A stretch of 64,000 nucleotides of DNA, taken from a virus. Its lineage: Duplodnaviria > Caudoviricetes. This document shows, one piece after another, positions 13,866 through 58,385 of the stretch; positions within the stretch are counted from its first letter, which is position 1; the number at the start of each line of letters is the position of its first letter. The stretch is from IMG/VR virus record IMGVR_UViG_3300021255_000122, positions 16,228 to 80,227 of that record. One strand, written 5' to 3'. The notes under the pieces were generated by a model. That model did not search any database, was not told the origin of the DNA, and was given only the letters and a program-made list of their open reading frames with translations. A program made the translations under genes and the position numbers.

Positions 13866-14678
13866 CTAATCAGTTATTTCTACCTTGTAATTCATTAAAG
13901 CATTATAAACTTTTTCGTTTATCTTTCCATCTTTGTAATATTGTGTTGCCATTTCTTGAATATGGGCTTCTTTCGTCTTTTTGTATGCTTGAAATGCTTT
14001 TTCTTGTGTATCAAACGTGCCAAGATTTATATATTCACCATACTTTCTAACAATAGCACTAAACGATTTGCGTTTATTTCTTTTTACTACACCTATCGGA
14101 AAATTACCCCTTGTTGCATCATGTTTTGTTATAAGCGTATTTATTTCAGATGGCACAAAACAACAAGTTTTAGGGGAATATACTTTATTGCCTTTTATAA
14201 GAATGTCCTTATCAAGATGATACCCTTCTACGTAATTCTCGTCAAACCATCTTTCGAAATTAGAAAAATACCGCCAACTATCACAAACAGTACAATTTTC
14301 GTAAGGTGTTCCTATGTTCTTTGACGAATAACATCTTTGAAACATGGCTTTCCATATTACATAAGATTTATGTCTTTCCCCTTTAACCGATGTGGAAAAA
14401 TCCGAATCATTTATACCAATGCCATATATTTTTTTTCGTGACCATTTTCTTGGAATACCGCCGTTATTACGTGAAGCATACGAACAACTTTTGCATCCAC
14501 AATACAATAAATGGTCGTGTGGGGTTTGTAAAAAAACACCATGTTTCTTGCATATAATAGGAACTTTTGTAGTGGTGTTAACGTAAATTTCTTCTGTAAT
14601 AAGGTTATAATCAAACCTGTTACCCCACACATTTTTAAATGCAGTTTTAATTTCTGCTAAAGTTTTCTTTCTTGGCAT
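13866..14678 (-). CDS. Homing endonuclease (Zn-binding N-terminus, HNH-like core, AP2 domain)
   Basis: ICKKHG..CGCKSC; WKAMFQRCY...LDKDILIKGNKVYSPKTCCFVP; NLGTFDTQEKAFQAY; alternative in-frame ATG at 14708. Confidence 0.85.
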   Translation of the reverse strand: MPRKKTLAEIKTAFKNVWGNRFDYNLITEEIYVNTTTKVPIICKKHGVFLQTPHDHLLYCGCKSCSYASRNNGGIPRKWSRKKIYGIGINDSDFSTSVKGERHKSYVIWKAMFQRCYSSKNIGTPYENCTVCDSWRYFSNFERWFDENYVEGYHLDKDILIKGNKVYSPKTCCFVPSEINTLITKHDATRGNFPIGVVKRNKRKSFSAIVRKYGEYINLGTFDTQEKAFQAYKKTKEAHIQEMATQYYKDGKINEKVYNALMNYKVEITD

Positions 14679-14699
14679 ATTATCTACACTTTTAATATT

Positions 14700-14772
14700 A
14701 TCTACCATTGGAATTATGGAAGGGGCGGTAGATTTGCCCCTTATCGGATGGTGGCCAAACCATCCTATCCAT
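14700..14772 (-). ncRNA. Homing-endonuclease-associated structured RNA leader, copy 2
   Basis: 45/57 identical to 7987-8043, with differences almost all compensatory. Confidence 0.8.
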
Positions 14773-14776
14773 ACTA

Positions 14777-14784
14777 CAAAGATA
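14777..14784 (-). promoter_or_regulatory. Bacteroidota -7 element (TATCTTTG) directly upstream of the RNA motif
   Basis: Perfect TAnnTTTG with TTTG upstream. Confidence 0.7.
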
Positions 14785-14822
14785 AACATTATTCTAAACA
14801 TATCCAAATATTTTTAAGTTCT

Positions 14823-17800
14823 TTAAGATAAAAGTTCAACAGCGAAAGCACGACCACTTGGTACAAGAACCCCTTCAAGTATATGTTGTATGGCTTGTTG
14901 AGTTTGGTACGATGATTGTAGCTGCAAAAGGATTTGGCTTACGGTAGCCGTTTGAACGTCTAAGTCAAAACCTACAACCGCATCGCGGATTTGCGTAAGT
15001 AAGTCACTATGCAAATAAACTTGTTGGCTTACGCTATTCATGTATGCTTCAAGTGCGCCTGCGGTTTCTTCCGTAACACTTTGAATACCTTGTTGTAATC
15101 CGCTAAGATTCTTACTTGGGTCTGCTTTGTCGCCAAACGAATAGTATTGACTTATTAATTCTTTAAGCCTCTCCGCAAGTTCTGGGGTTGTTTGCCCTAA
15201 TTGTTCCATCACCCAACTAATGTCAGAATCGTTAATTGCGGAAACCGAATCAAGTGCTTGTTTTGTCGATTTTTCGGCATCGGCAGCGGCTTTGCGATAT
15301 TCATCAGCAATCCTCTTGAACTTTGATGCATTTGATTGTTGCAACATAAACGCATCGTATGAACTGTAACCGCCAAATGTTGTAAGAATCTCCATGTCAT
15401 TCATGTTTTTTATATCGCTATTTCTTAATTGCGCTTCGGCGTATGCTTCCGCTTCTTTTTCCGAACGCGATGTGATTCTTTTATCTATGCTCTCCCAAAG
15501 GTTATCCATATATTGTGTCATAACACGCGAAACAATTGATTTCATTATCATGTTATCAATCATTTCTTCGAATTTACCTTCAAACACTTCCATGTAGTCC
15601 TCACCTTCACGGAAAGCATCTATCATGGATTCAACCAAGTTTTCTGCAAAATCACCAACGCTTGAAACACCCATTAGGTCGTTAACAATTTCGTTGGTCA
15701 TATCCATAATCTCGTATTGCAATTCCTTGATATTCTTTTGTAAATCAAGAATCTTGTCATCGTCACGGTCTTTGGAGTCACGCGACTTTTCAAGAATCAA
15801 TTGCCTACGTAGTTCTTCAAGTTGCAATTCCTTGTTGGCTTGTGCGGCTTTCTTAGCACCTACAACACTTGTTCCGTATGCGTTATCTATTGCGTGTTGC
15901 AAATCAACATAGGCGATTTCAAGCCGTTTAACGGCGCGTTCGGATGCTTCCACTTGTTCGGTTATCTTTTTGTTATTGTTGCCCGACAAGAAAGAAACAA
16001 GGCCGATAATAACGCTTAACGCGGCGGCTATAGCCAACAAATAAGGTGATGTTGATTGTAAAACAATCATTGCAGCCACGACACCCATGATAACGGTAGT
16101 CATAACGGAAAAACCTTCGGATATTGCATTGATAGCCTCTGCCGTATCATCATCGCCTGCGGCCTCGAATAGTTTTGCCACCGACGTAAATAATCCTTGC
16201 ACGTTTTCAAGTTGCCCAGAAAGACCTTGTAGGCCGTTTTGTAGTTTCTTGTAAGCCTTTTGTTGCTTGTTTTCTGCTTGAACAACCTTTATTTCTGCAT
16301 TTGATTGTCTTTGAATAGCAAGCGCAAGACGTTCTCTTGCTTTTGCTTGCATTTCGGGATTTGCATCTTCCGACTCGTCCAATTCGCGTTGAGCGGCTTC
16401 TACTTCTTTTGTTGCGTCGGCAAGTTCTTGTTGCGCCAATTTTGCTTCAGCGCTTGCTTGTCGCATTTCCCTAATGGATGATGTTATGGCAAGATACGGG
16501 TCACGGCTTTCAAGTTCGGATTGTGCTTGTTTTAGGCTTTGCATCAATGCTTTCATTGACGCTGGGTCTTCTTTGACTTGATTCTTTAAAGTTTCAAGTT
16601 TATCAATAATAAGTTGAATGGCGTGTGTGGAATTGTTTGACATATCCTCAAACGTCATTGTGTACAAATCCGAATCTTTGAAATCACCCCACGTTGCGCT
16701 TGCTATTTTACTATCTTGCATCTTAAATGCTGCATTTGCAACATTCGCGGCTACCTTGTTGCTTGATGTTACCTTAGATAAAACATCTGCAAGTTCTGCT
16801 TGTAAACGTGCAATTTCTTGTGGGTTGCTTGAAACCTTTATCCGCGATACAATGTCTAACGCTTGCGATTGTTGCGAATCGTTACCAAATTGACGAATGA
16901 TAGAAAGTTGTTCTTGAACGGTTTCTTTGTATATCTTAATGATTTTTGATTGTAAGTCACCGTACTTTTCTACCAAATCCGACCAATTCTTTGTAGCGGA
17001 CTTTGCTTCGTCAAGCCTTATCTTGTTGGCATATTCGCGTATCGAGTTGAGTGATTTTACAAAAGCACTATCCAAAGTTTGTCCTTGTTCTTTAGCCCAT
17101 TTTTCGAAATCGTTTTTGTCAAGCATTGCGGCAAGGTCGAAACTTTGTTGGATATTGTTTTCGGCAAACAATTTGTCAACACTTGCTTGCATCTTCGTGA
17201 CAACTTGGTTAAACGTTCTTGGTAAGTCACGTAGTTCGCTTTCATCAATACCCATCATGTCTGCAAAAACGTCGCCAAGTTCGGGGTTGGCATCAAGTTC
17301 TATGCCGAGTTCGTATTCTTCTTTAAGTTTACCAAGTTCATTGTTAAGGCCATCGGTTAACTTTTTGTAATCCGCTTTTGTAATTTCGACATTAATGTTT
17401 GCGATAGCTTTTTCAAGCGATTCTATTCCTTTTGCGTTGTTTGCACCCTTTGCAACATCAAGTAAGGACTTGTAATAATCTCGAACTTCTCGCAAGTCCA
17501 TATTGGCAAGTTCTTGTGCGCCCTTTGTTTGAACGCCGTACTTGCTTAATGTAGCGTTAACACGCATAAGTGTGTTGTTGTATTCTTCGGCTGCTTTTGT
17601 AATCGCTTCTTGTGCAGAAACACCCATCTTGCGATATTCGTTATATCGCTTTTGAATGTTGTTGATTAATTCTATTTCATCTTTAAGCGATTCGGCAAAC
17701 GGGTCTTTCTTAGCACCACCAGAGGATTTCGTCTTTTTATCATGTTTGTTTCTTTCTTCAAGGGCATCCCGTTCTTGTTTGTATTGTTTTTCACGCGCAG

Positions 17801-51939: not shown

Positions 51940-52104
51940 CTAAATTTTTGGTTTTTTTATCAAAACACCAATCATTTTGCCGCGTTTGAATTTCTTTGTT
52001 TCGTACAATTGCGTTTTCACCCTATTGTATATTGTTTGTTTTGAAACGTTCAACAACCCAGCAAGTTCGCTTACGCTTACCCATTCCGTTTCGTTATTCT
52101 CCAT
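51940..52104 (-). CDS. Small excisionase/MerR-like HTH protein, 54 aa (below track cutoff)
   Basis: MENNETEWVSVSELAGLLNVSKQTIYNRVK... Confidence 0.7.
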   Translation of the reverse strand: MENNETEWVSVSELAGLLNVSKQTIYNRVKTQLYETKKFKRGKMIGVLIKKPKI

Positions 52105-52771
52105 TTGCTTGTTCCGTTACAAAGTTTTCTTGTTCCTGTTCTTGCAAAGCCTTTAATTCTTGTTCCTTTCGTTCCTCGTCGGTTAACTTCGGGAAGATAA
52201 CGGATTCTTTCATACCGTCAATATAGCCATTGACAAGTTCGTGTTCTTGCTTGATAAAGTCAATGTTGGTAATATCCTTTTCATTTTCCGAGAGTATGAT
52301 TTGGTTTCTTGCAATATTGTGCAAGTAATTATCATAGATAAGGAAAGCCGCGCTCTCGGTTTCATCAATGCCGTATAGCGGATGGAATATGTTGTTAAAC
52401 CATAGGTCAACAAACCAACAAAGGTTGTATTCCGTCTTATCTTCCTTTTCTTTTAATTTGTCCATCAATTTAGCGTAGGAACGTGTGGCTTTACCATTTG
52501 CGTACTTAACGATGCAATCGTTTTCAAGAGCGATTTCAATAAAACGCTTTGTGTAAAGGTAAGGCCGTGAAACACCATTTGGTGTTAGTTGATTGAAAAC
52601 GTGACGGTGAAAGCCAGTTTCAATAACCGCAAAATCATCGGTTACGGTTAATCGTAAAATCTTATCATCAAAGAATACGGATATTGTATCTTTGGTTTTT
52701 GGAACAAGAACGATAGCGTTTCTTATGCGGCGTTCAAGTTCACCCTTTGTTATGTTTTTGTTGTTATTCAT
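52094..52771 (-). CDS. Hypothetical protein
   Basis: Clean 225-aa ORF. Confidence 0.8.
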   Translation of the reverse strand: MNNNKNITKGELERRIRNAIVLVPKTKDTISVFFDDKILRLTVTDDFAVIETGFHRHVFNQLTPNGVSRPYLYTKRFIEIALENDCIVKYANGKATRSYAKLMDKLKEKEDKTEYNLCWFVDLWFNNIFHPLYGIDETESAAFLIYDNYLHNIARNQIILSENEKDITNIDFIKQEHELVNGYIDGMKESVIFPKLTDEERKEQELKALQEQEQENFVTEQANGE

Positions 52772-52907
52772 TTTCCATTGCTTTTATTCGTGATTCTATT
52801 TGTAGAATTATATTGTCGATGTTTCTATGTGGATATTCCTCTTGCACATCAAGCAAAACCGATAGTTGCGCTTTTAATCTATGGTACATATATGTACTAT
52901 ACATTGA

Positions 52908-53447
52908 TTACTTGCTTCTTGTCTTTTTGTTCAAGTCCGAACGTATTGCCAACAAGCGCATTTTGATGGTTTCCTCGTTTTCGGGTATATGTCCACGAAT
53001 CTTGTTTCTTTGGTTGTAAGACTTAATCCACGCCATCGCCTCTTCTTTGTTGTGGATTTCATCGAACACCCATTCGTTTTCGGGTTCTTTGATTTCGTTT
53101 TCCTTTGTTGTTGCGTTTTCAAGTTCCCGTGCTTCTTGCAGTAATTCCTCGGCTTTTTCTGTCGATTTTTCATCAAGGTCTACGTTTTCAAGTTCCGTGT
53201 TCATGTAAGACGGAACAACGAAAATATCAACGATTCCACCAAATCTTTCGGAAGAGAATACTTTTACAACACGGGGCTTTGCGTCTTTGGTGTTGTCAAA
53301 CTTGCAAACGGCATAAGCCATGCGGTCAAAACCAACGTTAACGGTAGCAACACCTTTTTCAAAGGAACTTTTTCCATCCCATTTCTTGCGAGGAATGCTC
53401 GGCAAAGAAAGGTAGTCGCAGATTTCTTTTTCAAATAGTACTTGCAT
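52908..53447 (-). CDS. Hypothetical protein
   Basis: Clean ORF after the promoter at 53479-53486. Confidence 0.75.
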   Translation of the reverse strand: MQVLFEKEICDYLSLPSIPRKKWDGKSSFEKGVATVNVGFDRMAYAVCKFDNTKDAKPRVVKVFSSERFGGIVDIFVVPSYMNTELENVDLDEKSTEKAEELLQEARELENATTKENEIKEPENEWVFDEIHNKEEAMAWIKSYNQRNKIRGHIPENEETIKMRLLAIRSDLNKKTRSK

Positions 53448-53478
53448 AATATTATGTTTTTAAATTTGATTATTGTTG

Positions 53479-53486
53479 CAAAGATA
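53479..53486 (-). promoter_or_regulatory. -7 element (TATCTTTG)
   Basis: TAnnTTTG with TTTG upstream. Confidence 0.65.
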
Positions 53487-53526
53487 GGCGTTTAGTTTGG
53501 AATATGCAAACATTTAACACTTATTT

Positions 53527-53742
53527 TTATCTTTCGTGTGCCAATCTTATCATTTCCTTTCCTTTTTCCGTGGGTTCACCTTTTTTGTCGCAAGGAACGA
53601 ATATCATCGTTCGTTTGTCTATTTTTACCCACCGCCAACCTTCTTTCTCTAACTTTTTTTCAATACGCTTGGCCTTTACAAGTGTTTTCCTGTCGTTTTC
53701 CGTAACGGCTGGTTTCCATGCCGCCCAATTTGTTTCATTCAT
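53527..53742 (-). CDS. Hypothetical protein
   Basis: Clean ORF. Confidence 0.7.
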   Translation of the reverse strand: MNETNWAAWKPAVTENDRKTLVKAKRIEKKLEKEGWRWVKIDKRTMIFVPCDKKGEPTEKGKEMIRLAHER

Positions 53743-55108
53743 AGTCGCATATTATTAGTTCGTGTGCATAAGGTAATTCTTTAATCCAATCGCAAAAGAT
53801 GTGCCATTCGTGTAACTTGTGGTTTTTCCTTTGACGGTAAATAGTTGCCAATTGTTCGTAGTTTGTGGAACAACGCATAAATAGTTCAATTCCTTGCGGA
53901 CAATTGCTTAGAACGCGCATAAACGTATCGTAGCATGGATTTCTATTGTATCTCGCAATAAGCACTTTCATCATACGCCTTGCCGTAGAGCAAACATATT
54001 CATTAAAGCAAGCATCCATATCCATTTTTGTAAGACGGTGCATTTTGCTTGACGAACAAACAATATCAAGAAATCCGTACCGTTGCATTTCTGGCGAAAT
54101 GTAGTTTGGGTACTTTATATCGAAAGAAACGCGAATACCCTTCATTGCATTTCGATGTCCGCTACCTTGTGGTTGTTTTGCTAATCTCATTATTCTTTTA
54201 AAATCTTTAATAGCCAACATTAAGTTATAATTTCCTTTATCTGCAAAACACGCTTGTTGTGGTTTTTCAATACCGTATTTTTGAAAATGTAAAATATTAG
54301 GAGAAAATTGACCAAACAATTCTTTTTCTTTAGTTAATCTTTTTTTAATTGCATCTTCTTTGTTTGTATAATACCCAAGGTTAATAACATTTCCACCTAT
54401 CGCTATATAAGCCCTCCATTTTTTTCTATCTTTTCTATATGATATTCCAATTATGTTTTCGTCACCTTGAATGATTTTGTTTTTTTGTTTACTTTTGTTT
54501 AATAAGTTTTCTTTTTTAGAACAAGCACGTAGGTTTTTTCTTGTGTTGTTTGAAACATTCCTATCAATATGGTCTATTTCTTCGAATGTATATCCCAACG
54601 TATTACCAAGTAGCCTATGAAACAATTCATCGTCAACTTTTAAATAGCCATTTGAATCAACTTGTATATTTTTATCAAAGATTAACGGCAAATCAACACT
54701 ATCAATATAAGAAGTTCTTGTGATGTTCATGTCTCCAGTAACATCAATCTTTACAATGTCGTTTTCTAACAACGTGTACACAATGTGGTCTTTTATTTCA
54801 CCGTAACGATATAATGTATGAGAATGTTTTCCACAATAATAATTCCCATTTCCATTTCCCGCAAAAACCCTTTGTACATGATTGTTACTACCACATTTGC
54901 AACAGGAATTAATTGTGTTTAAACCTATATTTTTATTTTGATTTTCAAAAAAACGTATAAATCGAGGTAAAAAATCCCCGTGTTTTAACCAAAACCTTAA
55001 GTTTGTTACACGAAAATCAACATCTTTCATGTCGGTTTGCATTGCGTAAGAAGATGCAATTATACATTCTTCAATATCATATACCTTCCAATTTTTTATT
55101 TCAAGCAT
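53735..55108 (-). CDS. Phage ThyX-like (FAD-dependent thymidylate synthase-like) protein with an in-frame HNH-AP2 insertion
   Basis: KGIRVSFDIKYP, EMQRY, SSSKMHRL, NYEQLATIYRQRKNHKLHEW; insert with DHIDRNVSNNTRKNL and an AP2 domain. Confidence 0.75.
   Translation of the reverse strand: MLEIKNWKVYDIEECIIASSYAMQTDMKDVDFRVTNLRFWLKHGDFLPRFIRFFENQNKNIGLNTINSCCKCGSNNHVQRVFAGNGNGNYYCGKHSHTLYRYGEIKDHIVYTLLENDIVKIDVTGDMNITRTSYIDSVDLPLIFDKNIQVDSNGYLKVDDELFHRLLGNTLGYTFEEIDHIDRNVSNNTRKNLRACSKKENLLNKSKQKNKIIQGDENIIGISYRKDRKKWRAYIAIGGNVINLGYYTNKEDAIKKRLTKEKELFGQFSPNILHFQKYGIEKPQQACFADKGNYNLMLAIKDFKRIMRLAKQPQGSGHRNAMKGIRVSFDIKYPNYISPEMQRYGFLDIVCSSSKMHRLTKMDMDACFNEYVCSTARRMMKVLIARYNRNPCYDTFMRVLSNCPQGIELFMRCSTNYEQLATIYRQRKNHKLHEWHIFCDWIKELPYAHELIICDYE
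54224..55021 (-). mobile_element. In-frame homing endonuclease insert (Zn finger-HNH-AP2); boundaries approximate
   Basis: Residues about 30-295; AT-richer than the flanks. Confidence 0.65.
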
Positions 55109-55302
55109 AACCTTTGTCTTTTACCGTCCTCGTTTATTTTACTTTCGTCTTGAATGTATTTCTTTTGTGATGTACATTTGCGCAAGAACTTAATATCGCA
55201 CCCATCGTAAACCGTCACACCCAATCCGTATGTATATCTCTTGCATGTGTTCTTTACCGAACATTCGTGTCCCATACAATATACCATATAGTTTTGCTTC
55301 AT
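55096..55302 (-). CDS. Small Cys-rich protein
   Basis: YCMGHECSVKNTCKRY. Confidence 0.65.
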   Translation of the reverse strand: MKQNYMVYCMGHECSVKNTCKRYTYGLGVTVYDGCDIKFLRKCTSQKKYIQDESKINEDGKRQRLCLK

Positions 55303-56048
55303 TTAATATTCTTAATTATTTTTCCTACCGTTTCTTTATCTTTGAAAACCTTAAATGGTGTTATATCCGTTCGTTTTTCCACAATATCTTGAACCATTGC
55401 TACCGTGTAATAATTCTCTTTGTCGTTGTCCGACAATCGTTTAGCCGACATTAATGCGGAAGACTTGTCCATATCGGTACTAACGCTTTCTTGCTTGTTG
55501 GTTCTTGAATTATATTTCAATACGCACCAAGATTCGTTTTGCACATCGGTTTCAACATCTACCGCCGCATTTCTAAACGTAAGGTTCTTATCCGTGGTTT
55601 GTACACGTATTGCAATATCCGTTTCGTCTTGTATTCTTTGTTCGCCACCCAATTGCCATGATTCTGGAACTTGCGCCCATTTCATAATGTTGTGGAAAAG
55701 ACTTTCGGTTGCATCTACAACTTCGTCGCAAGACATTCCTTCTTCGTAATATGATGTCCAAAATCTAACGAAACGGTCAAAGGCTTTATCAAAACTATTC
55801 ATTTCCTTTGCTATTTCGTTTTTCCTTGCCCTTAGTTCATCTACAAGATAATCCATTTCGCCGTAGATACGATAAGCCGCAAGTACGCTTGAATGGCACA
55901 CGGAAAGCAAATGCCCCATACGTTGAAAGACTCCGAGTTCCTTTGCTTTTTCAAAGTCCAATCCGCGAACACCCGTTGTTTGAATTTTCTTTTGAATATC
56001 GTTGGCGATTTCTACACCGCCAACGACTTCTAACGCTTGATATTCCAT
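55299..56048 (-). CDS. Hypothetical protein
   Basis: Clean 249-aa ORF. Confidence 0.8.
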   Translation of the reverse strand: MEYQALEVVGGVEIANDIQKKIQTTGVRGLDFEKAKELGVFQRMGHLLSVCHSSVLAAYRIYGEMDYLVDELRARKNEIAKEMNSFDKAFDRFVRFWTSYYEEGMSCDEVVDATESLFHNIMKWAQVPESWQLGGEQRIQDETDIAIRVQTTDKNLTFRNAAVDVETDVQNESWCVLKYNSRTNKQESVSTDMDKSSALMSAKRLSDNDKENYYTVAMVQDIVEKRTDITPFKVFKDKETVGKIIKNIK

Positions 56049-56051
56049 TTA

Positions 56052-56309
56052 CTAATCGTTTGTGTTTTGTGTAGGGGTAGGGCTATTGCGCACAATGTAA
56101 TGTATTCGGATTTTGCAAACCACCTCTATTGGCGTTTCTTGAAACATAGCCATAGGGCATACAAGATGTCCGTTGTACGTTAGCCACAACTCTCGATTAT
56201 ACTCTTTTACTTGAATCAAATTCTCTGCATCTTCTTTTACTTGCAAAGATTTGTATTCATTTTCCCTTTGTTTTTGGCGGTCAAACCATTTTCTAAAAAA
56301 ATCAAACAT
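56052..56309 (-). CDS. Hypothetical protein
   Basis: Clean ORF. Confidence 0.65.
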   Translation of the reverse strand: MFDFFRKWFDRQKQRENEYKSLQVKEDAENLIQVKEYNRELWLTYNGHLVCPMAMFQETPIEVVCKIRIHYIVRNSPTPTQNTND

Positions 56310-56327
56310 AACGATATAAATTAAATA

Positions 56328-56540
56328 TTAAACAAGTAAATTCTTAAACACGCCACCTTTGTTGACAAAGGATAGTATGGGAACTTTATAGTATTCCACA
56401 CCGCGATACTTGAAAGGTTTTACGTATTCTGTAAGGAAACTACTTGCAAATTGCGCATCTACAAGTACAAGATGTTTCGGCATACGTAGTTCCCTTTCAA
56501 GTGCGCTATGTGAATGTAGGTAAGTTAATCCGTGACTCAT
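56328..56540 (-). CDS. Hypothetical protein
   Basis: ATG at 56540 just after the RecT stop. Confidence 0.55.
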   Translation of the reverse strand: MSHGLTYLHSHSALERELRMPKHLVLVDAQFASSFLTEYVKPFKYRGVEYYKVPILSFVNKGGVFKNLLV

Positions 56541-56547
56541 AAATCGT

Positions 56548-57387
56548 TTATTCCTTTTCTTCATTGGTTTCGAAATTCGCAAACTTTTCGGCTACCTCTT
56601 GTGCTTTTTGTGCATCATAAATCGCTTGTTCGCTTTCGTTGTCTATGTAGTCGAACTTGTTTTCTTCACGCATAACCGATTGGTCTGCCAAAATAGCATC
56701 TTGTAATTCAGTACTTAACACACCGTTCTTACTAAGATTAAGTTTAATAACCGTCTTTCGCGCCATTCCATCAAAATCCGTACTCCACTTGCTTTGTTCT
56801 TTTATATACGGTGTGGTTGAACGATAGGTTTGTGAATAACGCAAAGCATGTTGGTTCATTTCCTCTTTGCTCATGTAGAACGTGCTTTCAAAGCCGTTTA
56901 GCAACTTGAAATAGTTCACGTAACCTATAATTGGCGTTTCAAGTCTTTTTGCTTCGTCTTCAATCCAATTCCATTCAATTTCTCCAGTCAATCGGTTGCG
57001 CTTACCAAGTTCACCTTCACGTACATCGGTTGTGTTTATGTGCTTGTATTGACCCGTGCGCAATGCAAGTTGTTGGAAACCCTTGTAGCCAAGTTGGAAT
57101 TGTGCTTCGGTTACGCCGCGTTTTTTGTTCTTGAAGGGGATTACGTGTGCCATTCCAAGCGAAGGTTCAATAGGCAGATTTAATGCCGTAGCCTTCAAAG
57201 CCGCAAACATCAATGTGTAAGGTTCACATTCTTGCAAGTTGGCGTTGTTGGCGACAAGTGCCGTAAGATTGCTTACAAATTGCCCTTTGCGTTCATGCAA
57301 CAAGTCCGTAAGGTACTTTTGTGTTGCAGGACTTGTAATCGTTTGGTTGAACGATTTTAAATTGTAGATTTGAATTTCGTTTGCCAT
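56548..57387 (-). CDS. recT: RecT-family single-strand annealing recombinase
   Basis: ALKATALNL, AQFQLGYKGFQQLALRTG, FDGMARKTVIK. Confidence 0.9.
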   Translation of the reverse strand: MANEIQIYNLKSFNQTITSPATQKYLTDLLHERKGQFVSNLTALVANNANLQECEPYTLMFAALKATALNLPIEPSLGMAHVIPFKNKKRGVTEAQFQLGYKGFQQLALRTGQYKHINTTDVREGELGKRNRLTGEIEWNWIEDEAKRLETPIIGYVNYFKLLNGFESTFYMSKEEMNQHALRYSQTYRSTTPYIKEQSKWSTDFDGMARKTVIKLNLSKNGVLSTELQDAILADQSVMREENKFDYIDNESEQAIYDAQKAQEVAEKFANFETNEEKE

Positions 57388-57401
57388 AATATTATAAAGT
57401 T

Positions 57402-58385
57402 TTAATCGTTATTGTTTTTTGTTTTAATCGTAACATAGCCACTACGCTTTGTTGTCTTGGTATATTTCGCAAGAACTTTCTTGGCCTTACGTGGGTGTTC
57501 TTTCTTTAAATCTTCCACATACTTTTTAGAATCGAAAGATTTCGTTTCCGTTGGGTCTACACGGGTAATCGCAAATATTTCATTTTTAAGCGATTTGATG
57601 TTTTTGTCAACCATGAACGTGTACAAGCGTTTCTTAAATTCATCAACAATCTTTTCACGTTCTTTGATTTCCGTTAGAATGTTTGACACTACATCAAATT
57701 CTTTCTTTACCTTTTCGGGTAACAAGTTCGCGTCTATTTCGTCTCCATCGTAGTATTCCGTGAAGTTAGCAAGGAAATTTGAAACAATGGCTACGGCACT
57801 ACACATATCAAATACTTGCGCACCAAACTTGATTGGGCGTATGGTAATCTTTTCGGGTTCAAACACCCATTCGTTATCCATATCAACGTCCGATGTGTCG
57901 TAGTGTACAAGCACCACTTTCGTTTTGTAGTTCCCAAGTTTCTTTGCAAATTCCTTTCCCAACAAATAATGGTGGTAAAGTTGCGTCTTATATGTGTCGC
58001 GCACTTGTTCGGTTGTAAACTTGCTCGCCTTGCATTCGTACAAGTAAAGAACTTTCTTTTCATCGTCTTGCAACAAGAAATCAACGTGGTCGATAATCTT
58101 GACTTCTTTTGTTGAATACACATCGCTAACCAAACACGGGTTTGATTGGTATCTTTCATCTTGTGCGTGTAGATGTTCAAAGATACTCTGCTCAATAAAG
58201 TTGCCGTATTCCATAACCTTTGTCGTGATGTTTTCGGGCTCAATCAATCCCTTGCAAATAGCAAGCCGTTTATAAGCACTACGTGGTACGCTACCCAACG
58301 TTGCTACTTGCGCAAGCAACTTACTATCGCTACCACCCAAGCAACCTTTTCTTGTCGCAACAATGTCTTCTTTGTAATCTTCCAT
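57402..58385 (-). CDS. YqaJ/lambda-exonuclease-like recombination nuclease
   Basis: RKGCLGGSDS, MEYGNFIE, YECKAS, YKTQLYHH; adjacent to recT. Confidence 0.8.
   Translation of the reverse strand: MEDYKEDIVATRKGCLGGSDSKLLAQVATLGSVPRSAYKRLAICKGLIEPENITTKVMEYGNFIEQSIFEHLHAQDERYQSNPCLVSDVYSTKEVKIIDHVDFLLQDDEKKVLYLYECKASKFTTEQVRDTYKTQLYHHYLLGKEFAKKLGNYKTKVVLVHYDTSDVDMDNEWVFEPEKITIRPIKFGAQVFDMCSAVAIVSNFLANFTEYYDGDEIDANLLPEKVKKEFDVVSNILTEIKEREKIVDEFKKRLYTFMVDKNIKSLKNEIFAITRVDPTETKSFDSKKYVEDLKKEHPRKAKKVLAKYTKTTKRSGYVTIKTKNNND

Follow-up and report, generated by a model that had tools for sequence, protein, structure and literature searches.

The 64,000-nt window analysed here covers positions 16,228 to 80,227 of the IMG/VR record IMGVR_UViG_3300021255_000122 (Duplodnaviria; Caudoviricetes), a virus record that is complete at 80,227 bp and has direct terminal repeats. 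Its minus strand contains a single open reading frame (ORF) of 457 aa at 53735..55108 (stop codon 53735-53737), the product of which, P0001, combines a host protein of ThyX-like fold with an internal HNH-AP2 endonuclease read in the same frame. The original prediction, made from the DNA letters, had described this ORF and placed an endonuclease at residues ~30-295 of a ThyX-like enzyme. The ORF exists and the insert is present; its limits are corrected here to residues ~33-296, a length of 264 codons. The correction comes from alignment with insert-free homologues of ~193 aa, which match P0001 at residues 1-32 and again at residues 297-457. This fixes both junctions and establishes that the two flanks are homologous to one contiguous protein. 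Similarly, residues 1-29, and then ~297 onward, align with insert-free proteins of Clostridioides phage phiCD211, Clostridium phage XP41-N3 and one Fusobacterium phage. As had been predicted, the insert is the more AT-rich part, with a GC content of 0.25-0.33 across the insert region (54150-55050) versus 0.37-0.42 in the flanks. At the stop-codon frequency of ~8% given by this composition, our own arithmetic puts the chance of 264 open codons at ~1e-9.

The gene, all of it on the minus strand, is best followed from its start codon. Host codons 1-11 (55076..55108) encode the start of strand beta1 and are common to an insert-free allele found on locus L004: the encoded residues are the same, 30 of the 33 bases agree, and the segment lies inside a blastn match of 96.8% identity. 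Codons 12-32 (55013..55075; motif ...ASSYAM...) form the left flank of a cassette; they are homologous to the host N-terminus and, by codon-level comparison, strongly diverged from the insert-free allele. Next are an N-linker, residues 33-61 (54926..55012; RVxNLxxWL..FLPxF..QNKN), which is helical; the endonuclease core, residues 62-281 (54266..54925), ending in FQKYGI; and a C-linker, residues 282-296 (54221..54265), a predicted coil connecting the end of the endonuclease to host helix alpha2. The right flank of the cassette, codons 297-322 (54143..54220), encodes helix alpha2 and a GSGH loop and is again diverged from the insert-free allele. The remaining host part, codons 323-457 (53738..54142), returns to close identity: over codons 325-457, the DNA agrees with the L004 allele at 98% of positions.

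The host protein belongs to PHROG 6721, a family of unknown function. The profile matches P0001 at residues 290-454, corresponding to profile positions 45-217 of 218. Profile positions 1-44 must therefore sit elsewhere, and they are found in the N-terminal residues beyond the insert. An AlphaFold2 model of the whole of P0001, built on a 52-sequence alignment, has a pLDDT of 90.9 and a pTM of 0.84, and its top PDB matches in Foldseek are ThyX enzymes. Alignment of the full model to ThyX structures with VIA-align gives Z ~11 over 170-182 residues. As the aligned span runs over model residues 1..457, the ThyX fold is completed across the insert. The model of the insert-free homologue encoded on L004 (P0063, 193 aa; pLDDT 89.4) has the same order of secondary-structure elements with an offset of 264 residues, and in it the insertion point falls at the boundary between a loop and helix alpha2, near residues 35/36. 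In an unbiased comparison of P0063 with 48,161 chains, ThyX-family chains alone reach Z 10.9-12.8 (168-181 of 193 residues), among them the UMP/dUMP methylase PolB; the next best value is 5.1.

At the level of sequence this relationship is hardly visible. Pfam Thy1 matches only 4 of 23 family members, at E>=0.02, and P0001 itself has no Thy1 match at E<=1. A search of PDB sequences with the family hidden Markov model (HMM) did not retrieve ThyX at E<=10, making the ThyX link structural only, apart from the weak Thy1 matches and a lead, also weak, in the ESM protein atlas. An NCBIfam search gave no useful match for the host protein. The ThyX sequence motif is RHRxxSxxxxSxR; the corresponding segment here reads QRY-x7-S-x-S-x-x-HR, a correspondence read by eye from the alignment rather than from structural superposition. 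On the models, the host is thus a ThyX-fold protein of PHROG 6721, ThyX at the level of fold only, for which a role as thymidylate synthase is putative. The earlier description of the flanks as ThyX-like holds for the fold and fails for the sequence. The labels "enzyme" and "bifunctional", also applied earlier to the fusion, may be correct but are putative for a host that lacks the ThyX sequence motif. The family varies in length at other places as well: a second variable loop after a conserved ...YN carries inserts of 10-70 residues (alignment columns ~445-500; P0017, P0025, P0037, P0048, L001), and several members have C-terminal extensions (P0038-P0045, ~387 aa; P0047; P0059).

The insert is a complete zinc-ribbon/HNH/AP2 homing endonuclease of the free-standing type, joined to the host by two linkers. 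All three domains named in the original prediction are found. The zinc ribbon (CxxC ... CxxH, residues 69-95, 54824..54904) is kept in 19 of 20 insert-bearing homologues. The HNH catalytic motif occupies residues 177-204 (54497..54580; DHIDRN..NN.R.NLR...N..N); Pfam HNH_3 matches residues 177-202 above its gathering score (E 8e-6) and is found in 20 of 23 family members, and the HNH histidine is invariant in the alignment. The AP2-like DNA-binding domain, residues 218-268 (54305..54457), consists of three strands and a helix. Its Pfam match is weak in P0001 (residues 218-252); AP2 is found in 19 of the 23 family members, and the structure of residues 215-287 aligns to the plant AP2 domains of WRI1, TEM1 and ERF1 with VIA Z values of 7.6-8.2.

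Comparison with free-standing proteins defines where the endonuclease begins and ends. PHROG HNH endonuclease families match residues 172-282, and structure matches to the insert in BFVD, a set of viral structures, are phage HNH homing endonucleases. Residues 69-280 are 33% identical (E 3e-23) to a 250-aa stand-alone protein of Enterocloster phage CB473P1 (gp2, L012). That protein ends ...FEKYGIN, where P0001 has FQKYGIE at residues 275-281. When residues 62-281 were searched exhaustively, they were matched over their entire length by many stand-alone proteins of 205-250 aa, with which the core is collinear at full length. The N-linker and the C-linker are conserved in all insert-bearing homologues and absent from the free-standing endonucleases.

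Several other occurrences of related or comparable endonucleases can be listed here. Two further proteins, P0193 (477 aa) and P0257 (629 aa), have a member of the same HNH-AP2 family joined in frame behind another domain, an NT5C-type 5' nucleotidase in the former and a C5 cytosine DNA methylase in the latter; in-frame capture of this family may not be limited to the ThyX-fold gene. One BFVD match is a DNA polymerase of Klosneuvirus (A0A1V0SJJ7, 997 aa), a giant-virus PolB that resembles the insert structurally over ~278 columns and may carry an HNH-type insert or intein. A search for related loci with the insert alone found one weak, unrelated giant-virus locus (L009). When the window's own genome was searched with residues 33-296, the insert itself was the sole match. 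The window also contains, at 13866-14807 on the minus strand, a separate free-standing gene of 313 aa for a Zn/HNH-like/AP2-like endonuclease, between the tape-measure gene and the next tail gene. Judged by eye rather than by pairwise comparison, it has no obvious similarity to the in-frame insert; its presence means that the phage carries several nuclease elements.

The nuclease is maintained as part of the host reading frame. At least 19 protein clusters (445-478 aa; 37-72% identity at 99-100% coverage) share the architecture of P0001 with the whole insert open, and the zinc ligands, HNH residues and linker motifs are conserved across these in-frame homologues. L007, the closest relative, differs from the window in the insert by 13 synonymous and 5 non-synonymous changes, a dN/dS of 0.087 that indicates purifying selection in the host frame; within the N-linker the ratio is 4 synonymous to 1 non-synonymous. 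Besides the host frame, the insert contains no same-strand ORF of at least 40 aa. Within residues 33-68 the homologue alignment has no conserved Met, and hence none ahead of the nuclease core. An internal start at Met297, preceded by AAGGA 12 nt upstream, was considered and rejected, as Met297 is not conserved in homologues. With neither a start nor a stop of its own and no conserved Met, the nuclease can be produced only within the fusion, from the host start codon. A scan for promoters and terminators returned sites no more numerous than in shuffled sequence. The original prediction had allowed for a bypass mechanism; ribosomal bypass is unnecessary where the frame is continuous.

An artefact, in which a free-standing endonuclease gene was joined to its neighbours by sequencing errors in assembly or by annotation, would produce the same appearance. 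All examples are metagenomic, and the relative L007 has a homopolymer frameshift near the start of its gene, both of which are in keeping with such an origin. However, at least 19 protein clusters, independent of one another and drawn from different samples and sources, repeat this in-frame arrangement, and the net insert amounts to exactly 264 codons here and 260 in a second allele pair (below). The presence of the host N-terminal strand beyond the insert also means that the host gene is truly interrupted. An artefact is therefore scarcely credible. The frameshift itself concerns L007:3001-4296 with ~60 nt upstream (P0002): codons 4-6 contain a run of 7 A, versus 6 in the window, and the gene is called from Met27. 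Either the extra A was introduced in assembly, or the gene truly begins with a slippery homopolymer.

Excision from the RNA is an established way for an endonuclease to reside in a gene; the insert would then be a self-splicing intron, of group I or another class, with an ORF that by chance continues the frame of the two exons. HNH endonucleases are common in phage group I introns, and the AT-richness of the insert would suit an intron. Against this, an Rfam 15 scan of 53400-55500 on both strands gives 0 matches at E<=10, and all 264 codons are open in the 19 or more diverged homologues. The substitutions are mostly synonymous throughout the insert, the N-linker included. Beyond the 660-nt endonuclease core only ~130 nt are left, and these encode a conserved peptide. 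Taken together, these observations make an intron exceedingly improbable.

Protein splicing would require a different set of features, none of which is apparent at the junctions. At the N-terminal junction (...DF/RV..., the stroke marking the boundary), the insert begins with Arg or an equivalent residue, and the 20 homologues share no conserved nucleophile within +/-3 positions. At the C-terminal junction (...Y-x-L-x-x/A-x-KDF), the +1 residue is Ala, Ile or Val and no Asn is conserved. Across the homologue alignment, neither junction has a conserved Cys, Ser, Thr or Asn. Pfam matches to a Hint or intein family are absent at E<=1 from P0001 and from all 23 family members. Structure searches with the P0001 model listed ThyX, AP2 and HNH proteins and no intein, although absence from a list of folds is no proof. 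The absence of intein termini, group I core sequences and stop codons noted earlier is thus borne out by junction residues, Rfam and 264 open codons. We infer that splicing is absent at both the RNA and the protein level.

Processing after translation could take a form that owes nothing to Hint: self-cleavage at the linkers, or cutting by a host or phage protease, either of which would restore or split the host protein. Proteolysis is compatible with all the computed results, and the restriction of the two linkers to insert-bearing proteins, in all of which they are conserved, is what a processing signal might look like. The junctions, on the other hand, offer neither conserved Cys, Ser, Thr or Asn nor a Hint or intein signal, and the models show the linkers as ordinary helices and coil running into host helix alpha2. 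Remnant proteins, described below, retain a linker without a nuclease, as expected of a structure that is merely tolerated. Unrecognised processing of this type is quite improbable. Its more specific form is very doubtful: the conserved linkers would act after translation as a processing module of a new type, not related to Hint, and would excise the nuclease or set it free, which would give a parasite of genes a novel escape at the protein level. In a milder version, the HNH, normally of a monomeric nickase type, would work only because the oligomeric ThyX-fold scaffold gathers several copies.

Evidence that the insert has moved comes from pairs of alleles with and without it. The insert-free P0063 is 99% identical to P0001 over the C-terminal domain, and the genes of its locus, L004, follow the order found in the window: RecT, genes of 70, 83, 249 and 63 aa, the ThyX-like gene, and genes of 71 and 179 aa. 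The two genomes are 96.8-97.2% identical on both sides of the cassette. Between window positions 55077 and 54142, however, 934 nt stand in place of 142 nt in L004, which makes the window longer by 792 nt (264 codons). Compared codon by codon, identity drops sharply at codon 12 and is restored at codon 323. The exchanged unit (codons 12-322) therefore takes in, besides the insert, ~21 and ~26 host codons that are homologous but diverged. Such diverged flanks are as expected if co-conversion had accompanied transfer of the cassette.

A second, independent pair consists of L010, with the insert, and L011, without it. The breakpoints are the same (codon 12 and KGIRVSFD), the net difference is 260 codons, and the upstream genes differ from those of the window, placing this pair in another genomic neighbourhood. 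The flanks also carry signatures that separate the two classes of allele. The motif S[GSA]Y is found in 19 of 21 insert-bearing proteins, none of which has xRN; [CSA]RN is found in 110 of 133 insert-free proteins. HSNFRK is present in 89 insert-free proteins and in no insert-bearing one, and the window has HRNAMK at that position.

The age of the insert differs from that of its surroundings. Between the window and L007, dS is 0.09 for the insert versus 0.33 for the host C-terminal domain, which makes the insert younger than the host gene in this comparison. A FastTree tree of the host C-terminal domain (165 rows, 132 columns; of limited resolution) has the insert-bearing rows scattered, such that 16 changes are needed, at least 4 of them forced by strongly supported branches. 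Identities of insert and host are correlated (r = 0.79), which points to a long association, with transfer mostly among related alleles. From these sequence comparisons, the insert behaves as a mobile element.

The family, in which some 2,000 shorter relatives lack the insert, also contains what appear to be later stages of the same insertion. P0021 (286 aa) and P0023 (307 aa) are without zinc ribbon, HNH and AP2; the N-linker is kept in both, as detected by BLASTP in P0021 (E 8e-17, residues 1-56) and by multiple alignment in P0023. P0026-P0040 (~250-273 aa) have only a short insert of ~50-60 residues, in which the N-linker is again retained. Among them, the 73 N-terminal residues of P0028, which include the N-linker, align with P0008 at E 5e-18, and FKIAGIESP of P0026 aligns where P0008 reads FEQYGIESP, the C-terminus of the endonuclease itself. 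This short motif suggests that the short-insert forms descend from insert-bearing ancestors.

The HNH-AP2 domain could instead be domesticated, a working part of a two-domain phage protein whose patchy distribution results from module shuffling and not from homing. One possibility is a nuclease that exploits either the oligomeric scaffold of the ThyX fold or the nucleotide-binding site on it. Persistence of the architecture down to 37% identity with catalytic residues kept, the high conservation of the linkers, the correlated divergence of insert and host, and the in-frame fusions of the same endonuclease family to NT5C and C5 methylase domains would all fit a domesticated role. Yet near-identical phages live without the insert, and what is exchanged is a cassette with co-converted flanks and fixed boundaries. 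The insert is also younger than the gene around it, remnants without a nuclease exist, and the ~2,000 insert-free members of the family dispense with it altogether. Near-twins that lack the insert, co-converted flanks, a younger insert and remnants are together typical of a selfish homing element, and domestication is considered unlikely.

In view of these data, the locus probably holds a homing endonuclease that is in frame, does not splice and is tolerated by its ThyX-fold host between helices alpha1 and alpha2. A non-splicing domain parasite in a surface position was one of the readings in the original prediction, and it agrees with the open frame, the low dN/dS, the lack of intron and intein features, the intact modelled fold and the existence of insert-free alleles. 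Three considerations weigh on the other side. First, given the correlation between insert and host identities, much of the history of the insert could be vertical, and a domesticated role is possible. Second, the strongly conserved linkers could take part in processing. Third, by tblastn the fused form is found in 0 of 50,697 GenBank phage records, none of which covers >=80% of the protein, so that all examples come from metagenome assemblies; a megablast of 52000-57500 against GenBank phages likewise gave no match.

The mechanism that would follow from a non-splicing homing endonuclease can be set out as a series of steps. The 264-codon cassette lies in frame at the start of host helix alpha2 and would be translated from the host start codon, without RNA or protein splicing, as an internal domain of one 457-aa polypeptide. 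In the models, the ThyX fold closes round the insert, with beta1 and alpha1 contributed from one side and the remaining fold from the other. In a mixed infection, a related phage would have its insert-free allele cut by the HNH-AP2 domain. Repair by recombination, with the insert-bearing allele as template, would carry over the cassette and, to either side of it, ~20 codons of flank; RecT or Erf is encoded nearby in these phages. The recognition site is probably lost as well, through the divergence of the flanks. We infer that the nuclease is active within the fusion, that homing is the route of transfer and that the flanks confer immunity to cleavage.

The genes around the host gene are of interest in this context. 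It sits in a recombination and replication block, near RecT in the window, as judged by synteny with L004, and near Erf and SSB in isolates. This neighbourhood may be a hint to the function of the host protein. The conserved early block extends over 52908-58385 of the window on the minus strand, and its counterpart in L004 carries RecT, SSB and a nucleoside deoxyribosyltransferase-like gene.

The presence of homing endonucleases in genes is usually explained by one of three means of escape: self-splicing introns, inteins or splitting of the host gene. The last is reportedly exemplified by Aeromonas phage Aeh1, where mobE is said to split nrdA, in work attributed to Friedrich et al. from 2007. 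In mobE/nrdA, as in the intronless homing of free-standing phage HNH/Seg endonucleases, an HNH of the free-standing type reportedly enters a coding region with neither intron nor intein and spreads with co-conversion of its flanks, which is the likeness to the present locus. Aeh1 nrdA is reportedly cut into two separately translated genes whose products reassemble, whereas here there is a single polypeptide. Endonuclease-containing inteins are similar in that a mobile nuclease is inserted in frame in a conserved protein and translated with it. Unlike inteins, the present insert has no Hint domain, junction nucleophiles or terminal Asn, and excision is consequently not expected. Free-standing HNH-AP2 endonucleases, such as CB473P1 gp2 and the HNH homing endonuclease of Bacillus phage Stahl, have the same order of zinc ribbon, beta domain, HNH and AP2, but are separate genes between others, with a start and a stop of their own, both of which are lacking here.

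The "hidden HNH" insertions of the ShiLan type, found in mycobacteriophage DNA methylases (Arsenault, Gosselin & Gogarten 2025, PMC11855218), share more with the present case. There too, an actively spreading insertion in a phage gene leaves the host frame open and has a disjunct distribution; features of introns and inteins are lacking, and the prediction is that the insert stays in the protein and stands out from the host fold (PMC11855218). The difference concerns what the host frame encodes. The ShiLan HNH occupies another frame, where it begins with a GTG and ends with a TAA of its own, and translation in the host frame yields a meaningless hairpin (PMC11855218). Here, the host frame itself encodes the nuclease as a folded domain, which has no start or stop of its own and lies in another host family. 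Fungal mitochondrial rps3 genes offer a second parallel, with in-frame LAGLIDADG insertions or fusions (Gibb & Hausner 2005; Sethuraman et al. 2009, cited in PMC7902536). There, the coding sequence of a homing endonuclease is reportedly fused in frame to that of the host without a splicing element of its own, as here. The rps3 cases differ from the present one in nuclease family, in belonging to a eukaryotic organelle and in a host gene that is reported to lie within an rnl intron. By analogy, the ShiLan hidden-HNH insertions and the fungal rps3-LAGLIDADG fusions appear to be the closest precedents, ShiLan being the nearest published case. What sets the present case apart from these precedents is that the nuclease most likely folds as a domain within one phage polypeptide, a rarely described lifestyle.

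If so, this would be a fourth route by which endonucleases persist in genes: the nuclease is carried as an extra folded domain of its host and translated from the signals of the host. The present locus would be a well-populated natural example of that route. One gene family offers the full series: empty sites, full inserts of 37-97% identity, inserts from which the nuclease has been deleted, and short remnants. This comparative series makes both the life cycle of a homing endonuclease and the structural rules of tolerated domain insertion testable. For annotation it carries a warning, as a "fusion protein" of this type would be a mobile element inside a gene. More broadly, insertions of this kind are one way in which multidomain nucleases could arise from selfish elements.

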